Origin: an uncultured Verrucomicrobiota bacterium
GTDB lineage: Bacteria > Verrucomicrobiota > Verrucomicrobiia > Limisphaerales > J093
Assembly (NCBI GenBank): GCA_964396005.1
Contig: CAYNCT010000001.1
Coordinates: forward strand, 19,679-83,678
Reading direction: 5' to 3'
Length of the DNA stretch: 64,000 nt
Below are positions 2,750-48,413 of this stretch, in pieces (the stretch's first letter is position 1; each line of letters begins with the position of its first letter). The notes under the pieces were generated by a model that saw only the letters and a program-made list of their open reading frames with translations, had not been told where the DNA came from and ran no database searches. The position numbers and the translations under genes are program-made.

Positions 2750-4150
2750 ATGTCCATCAGGCTGAGATTTCTGGGCGCGGCTGGCGGGGTCACCGGTTCC
2801 GCGTACCTCGTGGAGACGGAGCGGGCGCGGGTTTTGGTGGACTGCGGCCTGTTCCAGGGCGGCCACGAGGTCCACGAGGGTAACCAACTCCCGGCCGGGC
2901 TTGACGTGGCACAACTGGACGCCGTCCTGCTGACCCACGCGCATCTGGATCACACCGGCCGATTGCCGCTGCTGGCAACGGCGGGCTATCGCGGGCCGGT
3001 GTACTGCACGCCCGCCTCGATCGAAATGACCAGCCTGATCCTGCACGACTCCGCCCGCGTGCAGGCGCACGACCTCGTCCGCACCAACCGCCAGCGCGAG
3101 CGCGCGGGCGAACCTCCGCTGGCGCCGCTCTACGGCACGGCCGAGGTCGAGCGCATTCTCGGCCAGTTTCAGGGAGTCCCGTACGATGAACCGGTCGAGG
3201 TCGCCCCCGGCATCCGGGCGCGGTGGGTTGAGGCGGGGCATGTGCTCGGCTCGGCGAGCATCCAGCTCTGCGTCGCCAACGCCGGGCAAACCGTCCGGTT
3301 GGTGTTTTCCGGCGACCTCGGTCCCAAGGGCGCTCCCATCTTGAGAGACGCGGCGGGTTTTGACGCCGCCGATGTGGTGGTGCTCGAGTCCACCTACGGC
3401 GACCACGATCACCGGCCGTTCCTCGAGACGGTCGCCGAGTTCGAGCAGGCGGTGCTCGAGGCGGTGGCCCGGAAAAGCAAGATCCTCGTGCCCGCTTTCG
3501 CGGTGGGCCGCACGCAACTTCTCCTTTACCTCCTGGCGCAGATGTTCCGCCGCGGCATGGTGCCCAAGTTCCCGATTCACATCGACAGCCCCATGGCCAT
3601 CGAGGCGACGCGCATTTACGAGCGGCACCTCGACCTGTTCGACGAGGAGTTCCAGGCGCTCAACCGCGAACATCCGCTGCGGGAAGACCTCGACTCCGTG
3701 CGCGTCTCCGTCACCGCCGAGGACTCGAAGGCGCTCAATGACTGTCCCGGACCGTGCCTGATTATTGCCGGCGCGGGCATGGCCAACGCGGGCCGCATCC
3801 GCCATCACCTGCGGCAGAACCTCTGGCGCGAGGGCACCTGGGTGCTGATCGTGGGCTATCAGGCGGAAGGCACGCTCGGCCGGGCGCTCGTCGAGGGCGC
3901 GAAGCACGTGACCATCTTCGGCGAAAAGGTCATCGTCCGCGCGCGGGTGGCCACGCTCGGCGGCTTCAGCGCGCACGCCGGCCAGACGGATCTGCTGAAC
4001 TGGCTGGCGCCGATGGCGGGCGGCCTGCCGCGCGTCATCCTCACCCACGGGGAGGAACAGCCGCGTGCAACGCTGGCCGCGAAAATCCGGGACCGCTTTG
4101 GCCTCGCCTGCGAATTGCCGCAGCTCGGCGACGTCGCCCAGCTCCCGTAA
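2750..4150 (+). CDS. MBL-fold metallo-hydrolase, beta-CASP (RNA-metabolising, RNase J/CPSF-like) family
   Basis: 'VLVDCGLFQG' and the HxHxDH motif 'LLTHAHLDHTGRLP'. Downstream beta-CASP-like motifs 'VLESTYGD' and 'GFSAHAGQTDLL'. Length of 466 aa is typical. Confidence 0.85.
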   Translation: MSIRLRFLGAAGGVTGSAYLVETERARVLVDCGLFQGGHEVHEGNQLPAGLDVAQLDAVLLTHAHLDHTGRLPLLATAGYRGPVYCTPASIEMTSLILHDSARVQAHDLVRTNRQRERAGEPPLAPLYGTAEVERILGQFQGVPYDEPVEVAPGIRARWVEAGHVLGSASIQLCVANAGQTVRLVFSGDLGPKGAPILRDAAGFDAADVVVLESTYGDHDHRPFLETVAEFEQAVLEAVARKSKILVPAFAVGRTQLLLYLLAQMFRRGMVPKFPIHIDSPMAIEATRIYERHLDLFDEEFQALNREHPLREDLDSVRVSVTAEDSKALNDCPGPCLIIAGAGMANAGRIRHHLRQNLWREGTWVLIVGYQAEGTLGRALVEGAKHVTIFGEKVIVRARVATLGGFSAHAGQTDLLNWLAPMAGGLPRVILTHGEEQPRATLAAKIRDRFGLACELPQLGDVAQLP

Positions 4151-5445: not shown

Positions 5446-6272
5446 AAACCACGGTCCTTACCCCGCACGGGCCACCGGCGGCGACCGACTTCACCCGGCC
5501 CGCGGCCCAGGCCGGCCGCTTTTATCCCGGCGACCCGGAAGAGTTGCGCTGCGACATCGCGGGCTTCCTGCGCGTCGCGGGGATGGCGCCCGACCCGGTG
5601 CCGAAGGCCCTGATCGCCCCGCACGCCGGTTTTCTGTACTCGGGGCCGGTCGCCGGCGCCGCCTACGCCCGCCTCGGCGGTGCCCGGGCCGCGATTCGCC
5701 GCGTGGCGCTGCTCGGTCCGGCGCACTATGCGGAAGTGTCCGGACTCGCCGTGAGCGGCGCAGCCGCGTTCGCCACGCCGCTGGGGCGCGTGCCGGTTGA
5801 GCGCCAAACCGTGAACCGGCTGCGGGAGCTGCCCATCGTGAAGGTGGACGATCGGGCGCACGCGCCGGAACATGCGCTGGAGGTGCAACTGCCTTTCCTG
5901 CAGACGGTGCTGGACGACTTCGCCATCGTGCCGCTGCTGGTGGGCCGGGCGGACGACGCGCACGTTGCCGCGGCGATCGAAGCCGTCGGCGAAGGACCGG
6001 ATGTTTTGATCGTCGTCAGTTCGGACCTGAGCCACTTCCACGATTATCACACGGCGCGCGAGCTCGACGCCCGCACGGCAGACTGCATCACGGCGCTCCG
6101 GGGTGACGAGCTGGATGACGAGGACGCCTGCGGCTACCGAGCGATCCGCGGTCTGCTGCGGGTGGCACGCGCGCGCGGCTGGCGGTGTCGCCAGCTCGAT
6201 TTGAGAAACGCCGGAGACACGGCCGGCCCGCGCCACCGGGTGGTGGGTTACGGCGCGTTCGCGTTCGCTTGA
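5442..6272 (+). CDS. amrB: AmmeMemoRadiSam system protein B (Memo-like)
   Basis: 'GRFYPGDPEEL', 'LIAPHAGFLYSG' and 'HALEVQLPFLQ' are Memo-family strings. The ATG at 5442 overlaps the amrS stop (ATGA), implying translational coupling. Confidence 0.85.
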   Translation: MKTTVLTPHGPPAATDFTRPAAQAGRFYPGDPEELRCDIAGFLRVAGMAPDPVPKALIAPHAGFLYSGPVAGAAYARLGGARAAIRRVALLGPAHYAEVSGLAVSGAAAFATPLGRVPVERQTVNRLRELPIVKVDDRAHAPEHALEVQLPFLQTVLDDFAIVPLLVGRADDAHVAAAIEAVGEGPDVLIVVSSDLSHFHDYHTARELDARTADCITALRGDELDDEDACGYRAIRGLLRVARARGWRCRQLDLRNAGDTAGPRHRVVGYGAFAFA

Positions 6273-6410
6273 ACCCGGCCGTCTCCGGGCAGCCCGCGGG
6301 CCCGCGGAATCAAATGAAAGTCGCTGGCGGGCGGCGTGTCCGCGCGGCGAATCCATCCCGGAGGCGAGTGGCGGGGCGGCGCGCACGGAGCCGGATACGG
6401 GATTCGCCCG

Positions 6411-8091: not shown

Positions 8092-9606
8092 ATGCAAGTG
8101 ACGCGCAGTCTTCTGGCCGCCTGGATCGCCGTGGCGGCCCTCCCGTTGACCGGCGAAGAACCCCGCACCCGTCAGATGTCGCTGGAGGACTGCATCCAGC
8201 TTGCCCTCCAGCACAATCTGGACATCCAGGTGGTGCGCCGGGAGCCGACCATCGCCGAGTTGAACCTGAGCCTCGCCTACGCCGGCTATGACCCCGTGTT
8301 CAACGCCGGCTACAACCATTTCTTCAATCAGAACCCGGGCTCGTTCAATCCGAACATCAACCTGTTCATCCCGGGCTCCCAGACCGAGGGCGACGCCGTG
8401 AACCTCGGACTGAACGGTCTGCTGCCCACCGGCCTGAGCTACTCTTTAACCGGGCAGTCGGCGGAGAGCGAGGGCAGCCAGCGGACCGTTTTTGGCGGCA
8501 CCGTGGTGGATGTGCCCTTCCAAAACGCGAACAGCAGCGCGGCGATTCAAATGCGCCAGCCGTTGCTCAAAAACTTCTGGATTGATGGCACGCGGCTGAA
8601 CATCACGCTCTCGCGGAAGAATCTGAAGATCTCGGATCTGGCGGTCCGGCGGCAGATCATGGCCACGGTGGCCGCCGTCGAGCAGGCTTACTACCAGTTG
8701 ATCGCGGCGATTGACTCGGTGAACGTGCAGCGCGCCGCCCTGCAATTGGCCGAGAAACTCCTCGCCGAGAACCGCAAGCGCGTCGAGGTGGGGGTCCTCG
8801 CTCCCCTGGATGAGAAGGAGGCGGAGTCGCAGGTCGCCGCCAGCCGCGCGGCGTTGCTGGGCGCGGAGAATTCGGTGACCACCAGCCAGAACGCGCTCAA
8901 ACAGCTCTTCACCAGCAACTACCTCGAGTGGCACGACGTGTTTCTTGAACCCACCGCGAAACTCTCCGCCGTCCCCCAGACCTTCAGTCGGCAGGACAGT
9001 TGGCAACGGGGGCTGAGCCTGCGGCCCGACCTGGAACAAGCCCGAATCGAGCTCGAGAAGAGCAACATTTCGCTGCGCTACACCAAAAACCAGTTGTTCC
9101 CGCAACTCGATGTGGTGGGCAGCTACGGCCAGTCCGGCGCGGGGAACACCTTCGGCGATTCCCTCCGCGGCACGGCGGACGCGGAAGGCAGCCGCTATGG
9201 CTACGGCGTGGAGTTGTCCATTCCGTTGAGCAACCGGGCGGCGCGGCAGCGGCACCGCATTGCCAAGGAGCAGATCGAGCAACAGGTGTTGCGCCTCAAG
9301 CAGCTCGAGCAGTCCATTTTGGTGGAGATTGACAACGCCATCGCCCAGGCGCGCACCAGCCTCCAGCAGGTCGAAGCCAGCCGGGCGGCGGTCGACTTTG
9401 CGGAGCAGGCCCTGGCGGCGGAACAAAAGAAACTCGAGAGCGGCAAGAGCACCAGCTTCCAGGTGCTGACACTTCAACGCACCCTGACCCTGCGCCGCTA
9501 CGAGTATTTGTCCGCCCTCACCGGCTACAATGTCGCGCTCGCGCGGCTCGCCCTCAGCGAAGGCAGTACGCTCGAGCGAAACAATATCACACTCGAAATT
9601 CGCTGA
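8092..9606 (+). CDS. TolC family outer-membrane efflux protein
   Basis: Signal peptide '[21 protein letters not shown]', '[16 protein letters not shown]' and a two-repeat coiled TolC-like sequence. Start moved to ATG 8092. Confidence 0.85.
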
Positions 9607-9635
9607 CGCGCACCGCGCCCGCCGGCCCGGTGTTC

Positions 9636-9830
9636 AGCCGGAACGATTTCAGCGAGGGCAGGCTGGAAGGGGCCACTCGTCCGCCCTGTGGGGCGACCCG
9701 CCCGACGGTCGAGCGCACGAGGCTGCCACTGAAGCAGGTGCGGCTTCTGGGCGCACGGCTGGGCGGCAAGTTGCCGCCCAAAACGGCCAAGTTGGCCGGT
9801 CCACCCAGAACCTACGCCATCGGTCCGGCT
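9636..9830. repeat. 195-bp TIR-flanked intergenic repeat, copy A
   Basis: Aligns over its full length with copies at 14688..14867 and 46094..46288. Left end is AGCCGGAACGA and right end TCGGTCCGGCT, matching 10 of 11 bases as inverted repeats. Carries the conserved core GGCGGCAAGTTGCCGCC. Confidence 0.8.
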
Positions 9831-10777
9831 CAAAACACCTGCTCCACCGTCGCGGTCCTGGCCAGCGGCTCCACCCGGCCGGGGTCCACGTCGCCCGCCA
9901 GCAGCGTCAGCGCGTTGGCCGTTCCTGCGGCCGCCCCCCAACGACACGCTTCCCCCAGGTCGTCGCCCCGCAGCAAACGAGCGGTGACCGCCGCGGTGAA
10001 GGCGTCTCCCGAGCCGATCGGATTGACCACCGGCACGGCCGGCGTGCGGACCCGCCAACACCGCGCGCCATCGCTGGCCAGTGTCGCCGCGGCGCCCGCG
10101 GTGACCACGACCCGGCGCGCGCCCCGGGCGATCAGTTCCCGCATGGCCTCCTGCACGGCCGCTTCGTCCGGCAACGTCCGCCTGGTGGTGGCCGCCAGTT
10201 CGGCGCGATTGGGTTTCACGAGATCCGGCCCGGCCGGCAGCGCTGCCAGCAAGGGCGCGCCCTGGGCATCGACCACGGCCAGCACCCCGCGCGCGCGGGC
10301 CAGCTCGGTCACCCGGCCATACCAATCGGCGGGCCCGCCGGGCGCCAGCGTGCCGGACATCACCACCGCCCGGCACGCGGGAAGGTGGCGCGCCACCCGG
10401 GCCAGCAACTCGTCAAAAGCCTCCGCCGCCACCGCTCGGCTTTCCTCGACCAGTTCGGTGACAGTCCCGTTGCCCTCGTCAATCACCGTCACGCACTGAC
10501 GGGTCGGAGCCTCAACCTCCACGAAGTCCGTTTCGATTCCCAGCTCCACCAACGCCCCCCGCAGCGCCCGGCCGCGCTCGCCGCCGAGGAAGCCGGTCGC
10601 CAGCGGGCGTTCACCCAGCGCGCGCAAGACCTTGGCCACGTTGACCGACTTGCCCGCCGCTCCGTCGGAAGTCGCCGTCGCGCGGTTCACCGCATCGAGC
10701 GTCAGCCGGCGAAACACCATCACCCGCTGCGCCGCCGGCGTGGTGCCCACGCAGAGAATGGAACCGTCGCCACTCAT
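9830..10777 (-). CDS. PfkB-family carbohydrate kinase (1-phosphofructokinase/tagatose-6-P kinase-like)
   Basis: '[14 protein letters not shown]', '[14 protein letters not shown]', '[13 protein letters not shown]' and '[10 protein letters not shown]' are typical of PfkB kinases. Start moved to ATG 10777 (MSGDGS). Confidence 0.85.
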
Positions 10778-13771: not shown

Positions 13772-14688
13772 GGCCCACGCTTCCCAATCACCGCCAGCAA
13801 CCGCCCTGCAGCCGACGCGAATTTCTCACCGCTCTGCTGGCGGCGCCCGCGCTGGCCGGATGCGCCACCCCGGCGGCTGCCAGGACGCGCTGGCAGGTCG
13901 GCTGTTACACCCGGCCGTGGGATCGGCACGACTACCGCACCGCGCTCGACGCCATCGCCGAAGCCGGGTTCCGGTACGCGGGCATCATGACCGCGCGGGG
14001 CGCGTCCTGGGTCATGATCACCGCGGAAACCTCGCCGGAGCGCGCGGCGGAAATTGGCGCGGCGCTGAAGCAGCGCCGGCTCCGGGCGGTGTCCGTCTAT
14101 GGCGACTACCGGCCGACGCCGACGGTTGCCGACAATGTGAAGGCCCTCGAGCGGCTGATCATGCACTGCGTCGCCTGTGGCTCGCCGGACCTGTTGCTGG
14201 GCGGGGTCGGCGAGGCGGGCTTGCAGGGGCCCTATTACGATGCGATCCGGGAGGTGAGCGCCGTTGCGGCGGCGCACGGCGTGCGGCTGACCATCAAGCC
14301 GCATGGGGACCGGATCGCCACCGGCCCGCAATGCCGCCGCGTCATCGAGGACGTTGCCCGGCCCAACTTCTGCCTCTGGTACGATCCGGGGAACATCCTC
14401 TACTACTCGGACGGCGCGCTGGATCCAGTGAGCGATGCCGCCACGGTGGACGGTTTGGTGGTCGGGATGAGCATCAAAGATTTCCTGCCGCCCAAGAGCG
14501 TGGACGTGACGCCCGGCCGCGGGCGGGTGGATTTCCCGGCAGTCGTCGCGCGCCTGCGGCAGGGCGGGTTCACGGGAGGTCCGCTGGTCGTGGAGTGTGT
14601 CTCGCGGCCGGACCCGCAGGACGTGAAAGCCATCACCGCCGAGGCGCGCCGCGCGCGCGAATTTGTCGAGCGGCTGGTAGCAGCCTGA
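13768..14688 (+). CDS. Sugar phosphate isomerase/epimerase (xylose isomerase-like TIM barrel) with Tat-type signal
   Basis: 'SRREFLTALLAAPALAG' looks like a twin-arginine signal and the remainder is TIM-barrel-like. The ATG at 13768 overlaps the upstream stop (ATGA). Confidence 0.75.
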   Translation: MRPTLPNHRQQPPCSRREFLTALLAAPALAGCATPAAARTRWQVGCYTRPWDRHDYRTALDAIAEAGFRYAGIMTARGASWVMITAETSPERAAEIGAALKQRRLRAVSVYGDYRPTPTVADNVKALERLIMHCVACGSPDLLLGGVGEAGLQGPYYDAIREVSAVAAAHGVRLTIKPHGDRIATGPQCRRVIEDVARPNFCLWYDPGNILYYSDGALDPVSDAATVDGLVVGMSIKDFLPPKSVDVTPGRGRVDFPAVVARLRQGGFTGGPLVVECVSRPDPQDVKAITAEARRAREFVERLVAA

Positions 14689-14867
14689 GCCGGAACGATT
14701 CAATTGAATGCAAGGTGGAACAGGCGACTGGCCCGTTCTGTCGGGCGCCCCGCCCGCCCGTCGAATGCACAAGGCTGCCCCTGACGGGGGCGCGACTGGA
14801 CGGCAAGTTGCCGCCCAGCACGGCCAGGTTGGCCGTTCCACCCAAAACCTGCTGTCTTGTTCCCGCT
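14688..14867. repeat. TIR-flanked intergenic repeat, copy B (180 bp, 15-bp internal deletion)
   Basis: Begins inside the stop codon of the isomerase gene. Left end AGCCGGAACGA, right end TTGTTCCCGCT (9 of 11 bases). Shares the GGTGGAAC...CTGGCCCGT and GGCAAGTTGCCGCCCAG blocks with copy C. Confidence 0.8.
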
Positions 14868-14955
14868 GAACGACGCTCCACAGCGGGCTCGGCGGGCCAG
14901 AATTCACCGCTTGTTGAATCCGCCGCCCGGCCCCATCGTCCGGGTCAACACATTT

Positions 14956-16323
14956 ATGAATCAAACTCCCCCTCGTTCGACCTCCCGCCGGGAATTCCTC
15001 CGCACCACCGCTCGCGTGGCCGCTGTGTCGGCGGTCGCCGGCTCCTCCCTGCCGTGGGTGCATGCCGCTGGCAGCGACCTGATTCAGGTCGCGCTGATCG
15101 GGTGCGGCGGGCGCGGCACCGGGGCGGCAGACAATGCGCTGTCCACGGTCCGGCAAGGCCCGATCAAGCTCGTCGCCATGGCCGAGATCTTCGAGGGCAA
15201 ACTCCAACGGAGCGTCGAGGGACTGAGCCGAAAGTTTCCCGATCAGTTCGATGTTCCGCCCGAGCGCCGGTTCACCGGGTGGGACGGCTACCAGAAGGCC
15301 ATGGACTGCCTGAAGCCGGGAGATGTCGCCATCTTCGCCACGCCACCGGCCTTCCGGTGGGTTCACCTGACCTACGCCATTGAGAAGGGGATCAATGTCT
15401 TCATGGAGAAACCGGTGACGGTGGACGGTCCGACCACCCGCCGGATGTTCGAACTGGCGGCGGCGGCCGATCAGAAAAACCTCAAGGTCGGCGTCGGGCT
15501 GATGGTCCGGCACTGCCGGGGCCGCCAGGAGTTGTGGCAACGGATTCGCGACGGCGAGATCGGCGACCTTGTCCTGATGCGCGGTTACCGCACCGGCGGG
15601 CAGGCGGCGACCACCGGGCCGAAGCCGCCGAACATGTCCGAGTTTCGCTATCAGGTGCAACGGTTCCACAGCTTCCTTTGGTCGGGAGGCGGCCTGTTCA
15701 GCGACTACAACATCCACCAGGTGGACGAGTGCAGTTGGATGAAGGATGCCTGGCCGGTGAGCGCCCACGGCACCGGCGGGCGCCACTTCCGCGGGGATTC
15801 GGTGGACCAGAATTTCGACAGTTACTCCGTTGAGTACACCTATCCGGACGGCACGAAGTTTTACTTCATTGGCCGGCACATGAACGGCTGCCACGAGGAA
15901 TTCGCCAGCTACGCCCACGGGACCAAGGGCGCGGCCATCATCTCCACCGCCGCCCACACGCCGGGCCGCGTCCGCACGTTCAAGGGCCACAACCTGACGC
16001 GCGCCAACCTGCTGTGGGCTTTCCCGCAACCGGAGCCAAGCCCCTACCAGCTCGAGTGGGACGATCTGATCGCGGCGATCCGCGGCAACCAGCCCTACAA
16101 CGAGATCAAGCGCGGCGCCATCGCCAGCCTCGTCACCTCAATGGGCCGCATCGCCGCCCACACGGGCCAAATTGTCCACTACGACGACCTGCTCAACAGC
16201 GACCACGAGTATGCTCCCGGATTGGACAAGCTGGGCGAAGATTCGCCGGCGCCACTGCAGGCCGGGCCCGATGGCAAGTACCCCGTACCGATGCCAGGAC
16301 GGACCCAAGGGCGGGAGTTCTGA
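14956..16323 (+). CDS. Gfo/Idh/MocA family oxidoreductase with Tat signal
   Basis: 'SRREFLRTTARVAAVSAVAG' Tat-like signal, then the Rossmann motif 'VALIGCGGRGTGAA'. Start moved to ATG 14956. Confidence 0.85.
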   Translation: MNQTPPRSTSRREFLRTTARVAAVSAVAGSSLPWVHAAGSDLIQVALIGCGGRGTGAADNALSTVRQGPIKLVAMAEIFEGKLQRSVEGLSRKFPDQFDVPPERRFTGWDGYQKAMDCLKPGDVAIFATPPAFRWVHLTYAIEKGINVFMEKPVTVDGPTTRRMFELAAAADQKNLKVGVGLMVRHCRGRQELWQRIRDGEIGDLVLMRGYRTGGQAATTGPKPPNMSEFRYQVQRFHSFLWSGGGLFSDYNIHQVDECSWMKDAWPVSAHGTGGRHFRGDSVDQNFDSYSVEYTYPDGTKFYFIGRHMNGCHEEFASYAHGTKGAAIISTAAHTPGRVRTFKGHNLTRANLLWAFPQPEPSPYQLEWDDLIAAIRGNQPYNEIKRGAIASLVTSMGRIAAHTGQIVHYDDLLNSDHEYAPGLDKLGEDSPAPLQAGPDGKYPVPMPGRTQGREF

Positions 16324-40724: not shown

Positions 40725-40916
40725 AGGATGCGGTTGATGTTGACTGCGGTTGAACCAGGTTCTGCGCCCGCCGAGCCCGGCCCCCACCGGTCCACGGCGG
40801 GCTCCGGCCGAAATTGCCCGGGCTCGCGGGCAAAACGGCGTCGGTCAAGGCTTGGAACTGAAATGAGAATGGCTGTTCCCGCGTCCGGACCGCAAGCAAT
40901 TCCGAACCGCGGCGCC

Positions 40917-41208
40917 GCGCTGCGTCGCGGCCAGCATGCGGCGCCGGCACAGCGGCGCCCTACCGCGCGGCCGGGTGGACGGCGCCGACGCAGCGGCGCC
41001 CGACCACCGGAACGCGGACTCCAGTCCGTTCATCACCCTCATGCCTTGCGGCCGGTAGGGCCGCGCTGTGTCGCGGCCGGGAGCGGCGCCGGCACAGCGG
41101 CGACCTACCGCGCGGCCGGGTGGACGGCGCCGACGCAGCGGCGCCCTACCAACCGGGGCGCGGGCTTCAATCCGCTCAGCACCTCATGCCTTGTCCCCGG
41201 TAACACCC
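40917..41208. repeat. Two-unit tandem repeat (period ~146 bp) containing four GGCGCCG-N6-CGGCGCC hairpins
   Basis: Unit 1 starts GCGCTGCGTCGCGGCC at 40917 and unit 2 starts GCGCTGTGTCGCGGCC at 41063. Both carry GGCGCCGGCACAGCGGCGCC and GGCGCCGACGCAGCGGCGCC and end in ...CTCATGCCTTG. Confidence 0.8.
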
Positions 41209-45531: not shown

Positions 45532-45644
45532 AGGCCGACTCTAACACTGACCCCCGGGGTGTAAAGGTTGGCGAGGCCGATGTGAACAAGTGGGCGCAAC
45601 ACCGCACTCCGCTGTTGCGATTGCGGTGCGGCCGCGCCTGCGAG

Positions 45645-46109
45645 TCATCCGATGCGGAAGGAGATCTTCGCCACCAACTCCGGCCCGAACGCGTGCTGCA
45701 AGCGCGCGAGGATTTCGCGTCGGCGATAGCGCACGATCTCGTCCAGCCAGACGCTGCTGTCCACGTTCACGAACAGGGTGCCGTTGCGAAGACCGGCCGG
45801 CTGCGCGTGGACCGCAACCGTCGGATCCACCAAGTGGTCCCACGCTGTGAACACTTCCGCTTCGGCCACGCGCCGGTCGAGATTCAGGTTGGCGATGACG
45901 CGACCCAGGACAACCGCCACAGACTGGCGGTTGTCGGCCCACGCCCGCTCGAGGGGTTCGAGATCAATCCCGCGCCACTCGGCCAGGACGGTTTGCCGGG
46001 CATCGCGAGACACCGGCGGTGTCGGCCGGGCTGCGAAGAACGGGCGCGGCACCGAGGATCGGAGCCGGACGGGGCGACGGTTGGCAGAATCTGAGCCGGA
46101 ACGATTCAA
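45645..46109 (-). CDS. DUF721 (DciA-like) domain protein
   Basis: 'VFTAWDHLVDPTVAVHAQPAGLRNGTLFVNVDSSVWLDEIVRYRRREILARL' matches the DUF721 pattern. The start is uncertain because the listed TTG start lies inside repeat copy C and internal GTG starts are possible. Confidence 0.6.
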   Translation of the reverse strand: MNRSGSDSANRRPVRLRSSVPRPFFAARPTPPVSRDARQTVLAEWRGIDLEPLERAWADNRQSVAVVLGRVIANLNLDRRVAEAEVFTAWDHLVDPTVAVHAQPAGLRNGTLFVNVDSSVWLDEIVRYRRREILARLQHAFGPELVAKISFRIG

Positions 46110-46288
46110 TTGAATTCAGGGTGGAACGGGCCACTGGCCCGTTCGGTTGGGCGACCCGCCCGGCCGTCGAACGCACGAGGCGGCCACTGAACCGTCTGCG
46201 GCTGCCGCGCGCCCGGCTGGGCGGCAAGTTGCCGCCCAGAACGGTCAGGTTGGCCGTGCCACCCAAAACCTACCGCCTCGTTCCGGCT
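46094..46288. repeat. 195-bp TIR-flanked intergenic repeat, copy C (perfect 11-bp TIR)
   Basis: Left end AGCCGGAACGA and right end TCGTTCCGGCT are exact reverse complements. The interior aligns with copies A and B. Confidence 0.85.
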
Positions 46289-46337
46289 GGGGGCAAGCGG
46301 AAGGCAGCGGTGGAGATGCGGGCAAGGCCCGACGGCT

Positions 46338-48413
46338 TCACGCCTTGGCCACCTTTTCGTCCAGAACCAGCACGCCGTGCGGGGGCAGGTCGTAGTTGCC
46401 GGTGAAGGTGTTGGCGGTGAGGTAGTCGTGCATGGGCTTGTAGAACGTGATCCGGACGGGCGTGCTCTGGTGATTGAGCAGGAAATAGATGCGGGTGTCG
46501 TCGCGCTGCCGCACGCTCACTTCGACGTTCTCCGGCACCTTCAAAAGCGCCGCGACGCCGCACAACTGCCGGAGCCAGTTGACGAGGTCGCCGTAAAACG
46601 CCTGGCCCGACATGAAGCCGACGTAGATGGCACGGCCGGCGCCGTAGGCGTTGGTGGTCAGCGCCGGGCGGCCGGCGTAAAAATCGCGGCCAAACGTCGC
46701 CAGCACCTCGCACTCGCGCGGCTCGATGAGGTCGCACCAGATGCGGGCCGTGTGCAGATGGGTGGTCGGAAACGCGCCCTTGAAGTTGAGGACGTTTTCC
46801 TCTTCCGGCGGGATCGGGTCGAATTCCTGCACCTCCAGCCCGAACAGGTCGGTCAGGTCGTGCGGGAAGCCCGTGTCCGGCGCGATGTCGTGTTCGTCCA
46901 CCAGCCCGGTGTTGAAGGTGCTCACGAGGGTGCCGCCGTTCTGCACATAGAGCTTCAGGCGGTCCGCCTCCCCGGCGTCGAGCAGGTGGAGCGAAGGGGC
47001 GAAGACGATCTTGTACTTCTGCAACGCGGCGGAGTCCTGGTCATCGCGAGGCGGGCGGGCGAAGTCCACCGGGATGTTTTTGTCATGGAGCGCGTTGTAG
47101 AAAAGCATCATGTGCTCGCGCAGCCGGAACGCCTTGGTGTGCTGTTGGGGCTGCTTAAGTTTCCACTCGTTGGGATGGCTGTGGAGGATGCAGGTCTCCG
47201 CGACCACCCGGGTGCCCTTGAGCACGGGCGCGAGCAGCTTCATCTCCTCGCCAATCTGGCTGATTTCGCGGAAGACGCGGTTGTCGCCGCGGCCGTCGTG
47301 GGTGAGGACGCCGCCATAGAACTTCTCGGAGCCGATGCGCGGCGAGCGCCAGAAGAAATACAGCACGCCGTCCGCGCCCCGCGACAGGAGCTGGTAGGTG
47401 AACAGGCGCACCACGCCGGGGCGGAGCAGCGAGTTGACGTCCTGCCAGTTCACGTTGCCGGCCTTCTGCTCGATGACCCAGAAGCCCTCGCCCCCGCCGG
47501 GCAGCCGGATGTTCGACCGCTTGAGCGAGCGCATGATGTCGAACTCGACGGCGTTCTCGGAGGGCTTGTGTTTGAGCGTGGCGTAGGTGTCGAGCGAAAC
47601 GAAATCGAGCGCCTCGGCCATGTCGAAATGGTCGTAATGCCGCGTCAGGGCGCGCAGGTTGGTGGTGACCGGGACCGCCGGCGTGATCTGGTGCAGGATG
47701 TCGGCCTGCATCCGCACGAACGAGACGCAGGTATCGCTGGCGAAGCGCATCCAATCGAGCACCAGCGCCGGGTTGTGAACGGTCGGCGCCACGCGGGGCA
47801 TCGGCACGTCCTCGAACCGGCTGACCACCTGGCCCCAGAAGCGCAAGCCCAGGCAGTTGTTCAAATTCTCGACCGTCTCGTATTTGGCCTGCAGCCAGCG
47901 ATGCCAGTCGCGCGCGGCGTCGTCGTTGAACGAGAACTCCGTGCCGTGGCCGCCGATGCCGTTGTCAATCTGCCAGGCGATGAGCTGCGGATGCCCGCCC
48001 AGCGCCCGGGCCAGGGCGGTGACGATGCCGGCAGCCTTCTGCCAGTAGAGGTCGCTGTTCATGCAGTAGGCGTGCCGGGTCCCCTCGTACCGTTTGAGAC
48101 CGTGCTCGTCCACCGGCAGGATTTCCGGATACTTGCGGGCCATCCACACCGGCGGCGCCGCAGTGGGCGTGCCGAGCACCACCTGGATCTGGTGCAGCTT
48201 CATCACGTCCATGGCGCGGCGCATCCACTCGAAATCGTACTGCCCCTCCTCGCGCTCGTAGAGCCCCCAGCAGAACTCCCCCATGCGGACGACGTTCACG
48301 CCGGCGGCGACCATCAACTGGGCGTCACGTTCCCAGCGCGCCTCCGGGTTCTGCTCGGTGCCGGCGTAGGGATAGACCCAGTGCTCCGGGTGGTAATCAA
48401 CGCCAAAGTACAT
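46338..48413 (-). CDS. Beta-galactosidase, glycoside hydrolase family 42
   Basis: 'MYFGVDYHPEHW', 'GVNVVRMGEFCW', 'VVLGTPTAAPPVWM' and 'WQIDNGIGGHG' are typical of GH42. Length is 691 aa. Confidence 0.9.
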   Translation of the reverse strand: MYFGVDYHPEHWVYPYAGTEQNPEARWERDAQLMVAAGVNVVRMGEFCWGLYEREEGQYDFEWMRRAMDVMKLHQIQVVLGTPTAAPPVWMARKYPEILPVDEHGLKRYEGTRHAYCMNSDLYWQKAAGIVTALARALGGHPQLIAWQIDNGIGGHGTEFSFNDDAARDWHRWLQAKYETVENLNNCLGLRFWGQVVSRFEDVPMPRVAPTVHNPALVLDWMRFASDTCVSFVRMQADILHQITPAVPVTTNLRALTRHYDHFDMAEALDFVSLDTYATLKHKPSENAVEFDIMRSLKRSNIRLPGGGEGFWVIEQKAGNVNWQDVNSLLRPGVVRLFTYQLLSRGADGVLYFFWRSPRIGSEKFYGGVLTHDGRGDNRVFREISQIGEEMKLLAPVLKGTRVVAETCILHSHPNEWKLKQPQQHTKAFRLREHMMLFYNALHDKNIPVDFARPPRDDQDSAALQKYKIVFAPSLHLLDAGEADRLKLYVQNGGTLVSTFNTGLVDEHDIAPDTGFPHDLTDLFGLEVQEFDPIPPEEENVLNFKGAFPTTHLHTARIWCDLIEPRECEVLATFGRDFYAGRPALTTNAYGAGRAIYVGFMSGQAFYGDLVNWLRQLCGVAALLKVPENVEVSVRQRDDTRIYFLLNHQSTPVRITFYKPMHDYLTANTFTGNYDLPPHGVLVLDEKVAKA

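Follow-up and report, generated by a model that had tools for sequence, protein, structure and literature searches.

A probable miniature inverted-repeat transposable element with covarying hairpins at gene ends in Limisphaerales (Verrucomicrobiota)

Introduction

What kind of sequence occurs three times between the genes of a single contig, ends in inverted repeats and lacks coding capacity? The question is raised by a 64,000-nucleotide stretch of DNA from an uncultured Verrucomicrobiota bacterium (Limisphaerales, J093; GenBank assembly GCA_964396005.1, contig CAYNCT010000001.1, positions 19,679 to 83,678), the whole of which is called the window here. An earlier note, made from the letters alone, had left two answers standing, that the terminal repeats are transposition ends or that they are the closing stem of an RNA of about 190 nt. 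The answer reached here is that the repeat is very probably a non-coding MITE (miniature inverted-repeat transposable element) of about 193 bp with 10-bp terminal inverted repeats (TIRs), presumably moved in trans by a DDE transposase to targets of the form TNA. That identification follows from the TIRs, the target-site duplications, the copy number, the nesting of copies in a second element, the absence of one copy from a syntenic locus and the lack of coding capacity. The repeat is a new MITE family of a known type of system.

The repeat and its ends

The three copies, all on the + strand, lie at 9636-9830 (A), 14688-14867 (B) and 46094-46288 (C). Copy C has the outer ends AGCCGGAACGA at its start and TCGTTCCGGCT at its finish; in copies A and B the terminal positions are complementary at 10 and 9 of 11 respectively, and B also has a single 15-nt internal deletion. 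Over their full length the copies are 75-88% identical to one another as judged by a repeat finder, and when A, B and C are aligned the mean column identity is 84% inside the element, whereas the 20-nt flanks, being unrelated, show no similarity and the alignment goes no further than the element ends. With a profile made from A, B and C, the copies score E = 4e-62 to 4e-55. A covariance model run without filters over the whole window returns only these copies at 123-150 bits, the next match standing at 15 bits. The number of full-length copies in the window, their lengths and the deletion in B are thus as the earlier note described them. The open reading frames (ORFs) that cross the copies are not common between them, and the repeat has no coding capacity.

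The element proper runs from GCCGGAACGA to TCGTTCCGGC (GCCGG...CCGGC) and is bounded by direct TNA triplets. Its 10-bp TIR match is perfect in copy C, 9 of 10 in A and 8 of 10 in B, and variants in other subfamilies keep the inverted symmetry of the ends. A perfect 11-bp repeat had been claimed for copy C, and the complementarity is there, but the outermost A...T belongs to the TNA duplication and so the TIR proper is 10 bp. In copy A the element proper (9637..9829, + strand) lies between duplicated TCA triplets at 9634..9636 and 9830..9832, the right-hand one being the TGA stop, on the − strand, of a pfkB-family kinase gene. That of copy B (14689..14866, + strand, 178 bp) has TGA at 14686..14688, which is the stop codon of a xylose-isomerase-like TIM-barrel (AP_endonuc_2) gene, and again at 14867..14869. 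In copy C the element proper (46095..46287, + strand, 193 bp) has its left TIR GCCGGAACGA at 46095..46104 and its right TIR TCGTTCCGGC at 46278..46287, both on the + strand, and the flanking triplets are an imperfect duplication, TGA at 46092..46094 and TGG at 46288..46290. The element proper of 178-193 bp is within the MITE size of 50-800 bp.

Seventeen independent insertions from the window, from public Verrucomicrobiota metagenome-assembled genomes (MAGs) and from metagenomes were tabulated, the fetched loci being numbered with the letter L, and in ten of them identical 3-bp direct repeats stand exactly at the junctions. Each of 48 other offset combinations gives 0-2 perfect matches, and there is none when the flanks are read as inverted repeats. 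The perfect triplets are TCA (copy A, L037), TGA (copy B, L015b), TTA (L012, the L011 type), TAA (L018, L045), TTG (L036) and TAC (L024), so that a TNA triplet (TGA, TCA, TTA or TAA) is used in eight of the ten and the exceptions are one TTG and one TAC. The diverged subfamily member L015b has other, still inverted ends, ACCCGAAAAAC...AATTCGGGT, and with them its perfect TGA duplication. Together with the dispersed copies, the nesting and the absence from a syntenic locus set out below, these 3-bp duplications bear out the suggestion that the terminal repeats are transposition ends of a MITE-like element.

Two poorly duplicated copies have a common right-flank sequence (at L001 4070-4083 and L015 240-252), TTAGAGCGTTT, the reverse complement of which, AAACGCTCTAA, resembles the ACGCTCTAA that comes after the short modules of the MAG JACQWK01 described below. 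The common flank may be a preferred target or a piece of another repeat.

Dispersal, nesting and absence from a syntenic locus

For the census a 22-mer bait from the most conserved hairpin was run once against the GTDB genome set and once against the JGI metagenome set, which gave 28 loci in the genomes and 26 in the metagenomes, and profile searches then sorted out the true copies. Matches in Comamonas, Thermoanaerobaculia, Lentisphaeraceae and a few metagenome contigs proved by profile to be chance 22-mer matches within genes. Spread beyond the window is evident: the Limisphaerales MAG JBKBTZ01 has at least 17 loci with full-length or contig-end-truncated copies, many of which end contigs, and other copies come from the MAGs DAONTI01 and CAYXPA01 and from several JGI/ENA metagenome samples, with unrelated flanks each time. 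Identical loci are present in the JGI samples 3300037501 and 3300043177. The closest homologues of a flanking protein are in Verrucomicrobia MAGs and in a contig labelled Pedosphaerales. The source organism falls in the Limisphaerales/Pedosphaerales group, and the element belongs to soil and water Verrucomicrobiota.

Nesting is seen in JBKBTZ01, where five complete copies are flanked alike over 60 nt to the left and 32 nt to the right. Together the shared flanks make up another MITE-like element, whose TIR of 22 bp is GGGCGCATCTCAGTATTTTGCA; it is about 92 bp without its passenger and has 8-9-bp duplications of its own (ATCGGACC, TGGCCGCGG, CCGGAAAAA). The 194-bp element is inserted at a TTA of this outer MITE, and what multiplied in JBKBTZ01 was the resulting composite of 286 bp. 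Complete composites are at L007 2254-2539, L011 299-584, L027 1866-2151, L022 6657-6942 and L026 4271-4556, and several contig-end copies have the same outer end. Every outer copy seen carries the passenger, and an empty outer MITE of JBKBTZ01 was looked for among the fetched loci with none found.

Absence is seen at a syntenic locus in GCA_016716505.1, identified by a Gfo/Idh/MocA protein 91% identical to that beside copy B. Gene order is kept there, copy B is absent, and the spacer is 131 nt as against 267 nt in the window and without trace of the element; the copy is missing from this syntenic spacer in L057, L058 and L059. An all-against-all BLAST for occupied and empty pairs among the loci gave only copy B versus L057 and one further difference, between L045 and L049/L029. 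The latter are the same locus in different samples, 99.9% identical over 2.9 kb, and they diverge inside the element: L045 has it in full (6161-6354) and L049 (1-192) and L029 (3166-3285) retain only the right 72 nt or so, joined at CTAG to unrelated, A+T-richer sequence. A further insertion, a deletion or a join made in assembly might account for this difference.

Partial forms of the element were also met. In the groundwater MAG JACQWK01 there is only a module of about 50 nt, consisting of the two 3' hairpins and CCACCC (L002 521-571, L010 3916-3973, L016 1031-1080, L020 3-57, L023 5957-6008). All of these modules share their 5' cut-off point, one of their stem pairs is compensated (GGCC to GGGC) and one loop differs (TGGTA). 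In two of the five cases the module is upstream of a co-oriented gene start, by 31 nt in L010 and 25 nt in L016, and the predicted N-terminus of the L016 gene looks, judged by eye, like that of an ECF-type (extracytoplasmic function) sigma factor. In L034 the element's right half, with the right TIR, occurs twice (3825-3898 and 5794-5867), 16 nt upstream of the ATG of each of two adjacent paralogues encoding proteins with a prepilin-type N-terminal methylation motif, DUF1559-like (pilin-like); the common upstream sequence reaches past the element, and this indicates segmental duplication of a gene plus its leader. A 1-kb intergenic repeat cluster in the MAG DAONTI01 (L028 2713-3724) holds two tandem cores with decayed ends (2798-3026 and 3228-3457), 89% identical and with their differences compensated in two hairpins, together with six small palindromes GATGCCGCSCCTMCGGSGCT in both orientations that are like REP (repetitive extragenic palindromic) sequences.

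Likely mechanism of movement

In the scheme that we favour a DDE transposase supplied in trans would bind the ends and excise the element, which would then be reinserted at a TNA triplet through a 3-nt staggered cut, and the TNA direct repeats on either side would arise when the stagger is repaired. A duplication of 3 bp at TNA is indicative of a DDE transposase of the IS5 and PIF/Harbinger kind, and by analogy with other elements that duplicate 3 bp at TNA the enzyme is probably IS5-family or PIF/Harbinger-like; since no autonomous partner turned up, we infer this family from the duplication. The earlier note had proposed a search for an autonomous insertion sequence (IS) with the same termini. 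None was found in the window, the 60 fetched loci, the PLSDB plasmids or the IMG/VR viral contigs. Pairs of TIRs 0.5-3 kb apart in the window and fetched loci gave noise only, phmmer with an E. coli IS5 InsH query gave no match among 2,558 ORFs of the window and fetched loci, blastn against PLSDB gave no match and scans of IMG/VR gave 0 matches.

Several points weigh against identification of the repeat as a MITE carried by such an enzyme. The duplications are imperfect in seven of the 17 insertions, copy C with its TGA/TGG among them; five of these, C included, match at two of three positions and two are poor. No base-exact empty site is available, the L057 spacer being too diverged to place the insertion point. 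No autonomous IS with matching ends was found in the window or the 60 fetched loci. Further, the interior has covarying hairpins (11-12 pairs with double changes, a level reached by 0 of 500 shuffles) that exceed the needs of a purely selfish MITE indifferent to its structure, and the core persists in copies with decayed ends of the L028 type, which is likewise more than such a MITE requires.

The structured interior

The fold of copy C, at −113.9 kcal/mol (z = −5.4), has a terminal stem, a second stem GGUGGA/GCCACC and five hairpins; the z values are −3.7 for copy A, −3.0 for copy B and −6.0 for the opposite strand of copy C. The conserved core of copy C is at 46120..46263 on the + strand, where a stem formed by GGTGGA (46120-46125) and GCCACC (46258-46263) encloses the hairpins, all given here on the same strand. 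The first (46126..46142) is ACGGGCC-ACT-GGCCCGT and carries a GGAACG/CGTTC motif shared with the TIRs. The second (46144..46166) has a 10-bp stem, CGGTTGGGCG-ACC-CGCCCGGCCG, with the most compensatory changes of all the helices, and the third (46167..46216) is a variable central hairpin, at the tip of which copy B has its 15-nt deletion. The last two are GGGCGGC-AAGTT-GCCGCCC (46219..46237) and ACGGTC-AGGTT-GGCCGT (46241..46257).

Among 20 full-length copies pairing in the internal helices is 92-99%, with changes on both sides at 12 pairs, a level of covariation that none of 500 shuffles reaches and that compares with 3-9 pairs in slid controls. With four diverged relatives added, pairing is 94.9% and there are 11 such pairs with 32 double-change cells, against 1-11 cells in slid controls. 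In the L028 type one 10-bp stem is nearly all replaced and the ACY loop retained, and across the family the loops ACT/ACC (ACY) and AAGTT/AGGTT (RRGTT) are near-invariant. Conservation is 0.92 in paired as against 0.76 in unpaired columns. The near-invariance of the two 3' hairpins in full-length alignments is partly a matter of ascertainment, since the 22-mer used as bait comes from this region; in the relatives that were found by adjacency (L028b, L035b, L015b) these hairpins vary, with compensation. That the interior is structured is therefore upheld by its covarying, well-paired hairpins. The terminal helix of the same 20 copies behaves in the opposite way, being the least paired of all (75-83%) and deviating almost wholly by mismatches and not by compensation. 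The mismatched TIR helix beside well-paired internal helices, and the other but inverted ends of L015b, suggest that the ends evolve as protein-recognised ends would.

The hairpins are most likely structured recognition sites used in transposition, or else neutral to mildly useful RNA or DNA hairpins that can be read from either side, and their appearance is not that of a strand-specific RNA gene. Compensation in the stems may come alike from recognition of hairpin DNA, from template switching in palindromes or from selection at the RNA level. Single-change cells in the stems are of G-U type in 15 cases and of A-C type in 13, a balance that favours neither strand.

What else could the hairpins mean?

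Of the other readings the most novel takes the core of about 145 nt with its five hairpins (GGTGGA...CCACC, loops ACY and RRGTT) for a functional module under selection apart from mobility, which the MITE merely distributes. Such a module could be a protein-binding platform on DNA, for a host protein or the transposase, or a bidirectional RNA structure at gene ends. The hints are that all five helices are compensated, that the tandem L028 cores remain where the ends have decayed, and that the two-hairpin modules of JACQWK01 and the right halves in L034 are just upstream of genes. We regard such independent selection as rather unlikely.

A structured non-coding RNA gene or cis-acting RNA element of about 190 nt, closed by the TIRs as a stem and copied by duplication, would account for the strong folds of all three window copies, for the heavily covarying internal helices, for the nearly invariant loops and for the retention of the core in end-decayed copies. 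It founders at the stem that should close it, which is the worst conserved helix and has mismatches without compensation, so that this half of the earlier proposal does not hold; and the 3-bp direct repeats and the nesting in another MITE show insertion at the DNA level. Nor is there any strand signal, the reverse strand folding as well as the forward one and the G-U and A-C cells being balanced, and the orientation to transcribed neighbours is mixed. Copy C was scanned for a sigma-70-like promoter and for an intrinsic terminator and has neither. At gathering thresholds Rfam gives 0 matches in the whole window, and by E-value the best match of copy C, to M23 RNA, is below threshold (24 bits as against 41.2), in line with the earlier statement that no Rfam family was recognised. 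The TIR as an RNA closing stem was rejected on the pair counts, and the RNA explanation as a whole seems very unlikely.

An element related to REPIN and REP sequences or derived from IS200/IS605 (PATE), moved as single-stranded DNA by a hairpin-recognising Y1 transposase (RAYT or TnpA), is highly improbable. Conserved loops on compensating stems are just what an enzyme that recognises hairpins would maintain, and GTAG-tagged REP-like palindromes are present in the same window at 40914-41193. REP-like palindromes are also clustered with the decayed copies of L028. The window locus is a 145-bp unit repeated 1.9 times with 88% matches, intergenic between two genes of the − strand, each unit having two palindromes GGCGCCG-N6-CGGCGCC followed by CTACC, which on the other strand is GGTAG plus a stem-loop, like a GTAG-tagged REP. 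The hairpins of the element itself lack both of the tags, GTAG and CGTC, that PMC3733652 defines. Its flanking triplets are duplicated, the middle base of the triplet varies and its ends are inverted repeats. As is established for the IS200/IS605 and RAYT families, Y1 transposases make no target-site duplications, need no TIR and insert beside a fixed tetra- or pentanucleotide. A REP or REPIN (a palindrome of 20-40 nt with a GTAG or CGTC tag, no duplication and a RAYT gene) was rejected for an element of 193 bp with TIRs, duplications and no tag, and an IS200/IS605 PATE (subterminal hairpins, no TIR, a fixed 4-5-nt target on the left) for one with duplications on both sides, a varying middle base and TIRs.

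Scarcely credible is an array of host regulatory sites, in which the palindromes would be operators bound by a dimeric protein and would have been spread passively by the MITE or without it. The element does hold six occurrences of the GGAACG/CGTTCC motif, which is present in each TIR, in either arm of the first hairpin and again in the last hairpin taken with the CCACC arm next to it; the lone two-hairpin module of about 50 nt in JACQWK01 is in two cases 25-31 nt upstream of a co-oriented gene start, and right halves precede the two DUF1559/pilin-like paralogues of L034 by 16 nt. But operators should keep their sequence and not compensate, the position relative to genes is inconsistent (mostly 3' ends, few 5' ends) and nothing linked to the copies is a candidate for the binding protein; the recurrence of the motif shows that the element has sub-terminal palindromes related to its ends.

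Two other candidates were set aside. Integron attC sites have core sites R''/R' of the form RYYYAAC...GTTRRRY and lie downstream of small cassettes; the ends GCCGGAAC...GTTCCGGC do not fit that consensus and the neighbours are ordinary genes (306-691 aa), not cassettes. An ECF-type promoter GGAAC-N16-17-CGT within the module does not fit by its spacings, judged by eye.

Genes next to the element and the use of stop codons

Identification of neighbouring ORFs by Pfam showed all three window copies to be intergenic. Copy A lies between a convergent pair, an OEP/TolC-like gene (+, stop at 9606) and the pfkB-family kinase gene (−), whose stop codon at 9830-9832 abuts it. Copy B has the xylose-isomerase-like TIM-barrel gene (+, TGA stop 14686-14688) on its 5' side and a Gfo/Idh/MocA oxidoreductase gene (+, ATG at 14956) on its 3' side. 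Copy C is upstream of dciA (−), and 50 nt separate it from the preceding stop codon, at 46338, of a GH42 beta-galactosidase gene (−). Copy C is thus antisense to both neighbours, B is in the sense orientation and A is between convergent genes, and for that reason the shared + orientation of the three, which is real as the earlier note had it, is unrelated to transcription and meaningless relative to the neighbouring genes. Next to gene 3' ends in general the element is found in both orientations, with no fixed orientation to genes.

The observation that copies abut or overlap stop codons was confirmed with the Pfam-checked neighbours and can be made more exact, in that copies A and B have the stop codon of a neighbouring gene as their duplicated triplet, and in L036 and L019 the junction is overlapped by the stop codon of a long ORF. 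The reason is that any TNA triplet, read on one or the other strand, is TAA or TGA. G+C makes up 67.6% of the window and 71-74% of the cores of the copies (74% in copy C), and in genomes at 68% G+C stop codons would be frequent and tolerated targets for a TNA-directed enzyme. Duplication of the triplet would regenerate the stop and leave the gene intact.

The longest ORF of dciA (45645-46109, −) begins at a TTG within copy C. Its true start is probably a GTG some 75-90 nt further in (...SRDARQTVLAEWRG...), and automatic annotation could wrongly stretch dciA into the MITE. Of the ORFs reckoned as crossing the copies, the one examined, at 45582-46091 (+) and antisense to dciA, is without a Pfam domain.

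Significance

Full-text searches of the literature gave no description of MITEs in Verrucomicrobia or of the sequence of the element and no paper combining MITE, TNA and IS5, and a large 2024 survey of MITEs does not mention Verrucomicrobiota. The family thus adds a well-delimited MITE, with defined ends, target and structure, to a phylum for which no small mobile repeats are described in the literature found, and it explains repeat-induced contig breaks in Limisphaerales MAGs. As TNA is TAA or TGA on one strand, insertions in a genome of 68% G+C are funnelled to stop codons that the duplication regenerates, and this offers a testable example of a transposon that loads the 3' ends of genes without gene damage. 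The covarying hairpins with their fixed loops are a handle with which to find the transposase or host factor that reads them, and the family could be used as a strain-level polymorphism marker in these uncultured bacteria.

Comparison with known systems

Prokaryotic MITEs are defined as 50-800 bp long, with a TIR of at least 10 bp, a target-site duplication of 2-10 bp, an intergenic position and a stable transcript fold (PMC11602168, PMC10969869), and the element fits this generic definition in its size, TIR, duplication, intergenic site and predicted fold. MITEs are typically A+T-rich and integrate in A+T-rich regions (PMC10969869); the element is in contrast strongly G+C-rich and has A/T only in its 3-bp target.

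The Correia elements (CREE/NEMIS) of Neisseria are described as MITEs of 100-160 bp with TIRs at gene boundaries, whose co-transcribed hairpins can affect neighbours (PMC2649163). Like them the element is a small MITE with TIRs at gene boundaries. The Correia elements have TIRs of 26 bp that create promoters, they bind IHF and RNase III and they duplicate TA, features not seen in the element.

In its structure the element can be compared with bcr1 of the Bacillus cereus group, a mobile repeat of about 155 bp with a multi-hairpin, cruciform-like structure kept by compensatory changes (PMC3184786). Both are mobile, with short flanking direct repeats, a non-conserved genomic distribution and compensated hairpins. 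In contrast to the element, bcr1 has 5-bp direct repeats and is A+T-rich; it is known to be transcribed, and its sequence is unrelated.

Canonical Harbinger elements, which phylogeny groups with the IS5 family, duplicate 3 bp (PMC12730594). Relative to Tourist and IS5 MITEs the element is G+C-rich (71-74%), occurs in Verrucomicrobiota and has had no cognate transposase found for it. Elements of the IS1031 group duplicate 3 bp and end in GAG, to which the GCCGG... ends of the element are no match. What the element has in common with the Tourist-type MITEs of PIF/Harbinger and the MITEs of the IS5 family (IS1031, IS427 and ISL2 groups) is that it is short and non-coding, has short TIRs and is flanked by a 3-bp T-N-A duplication.

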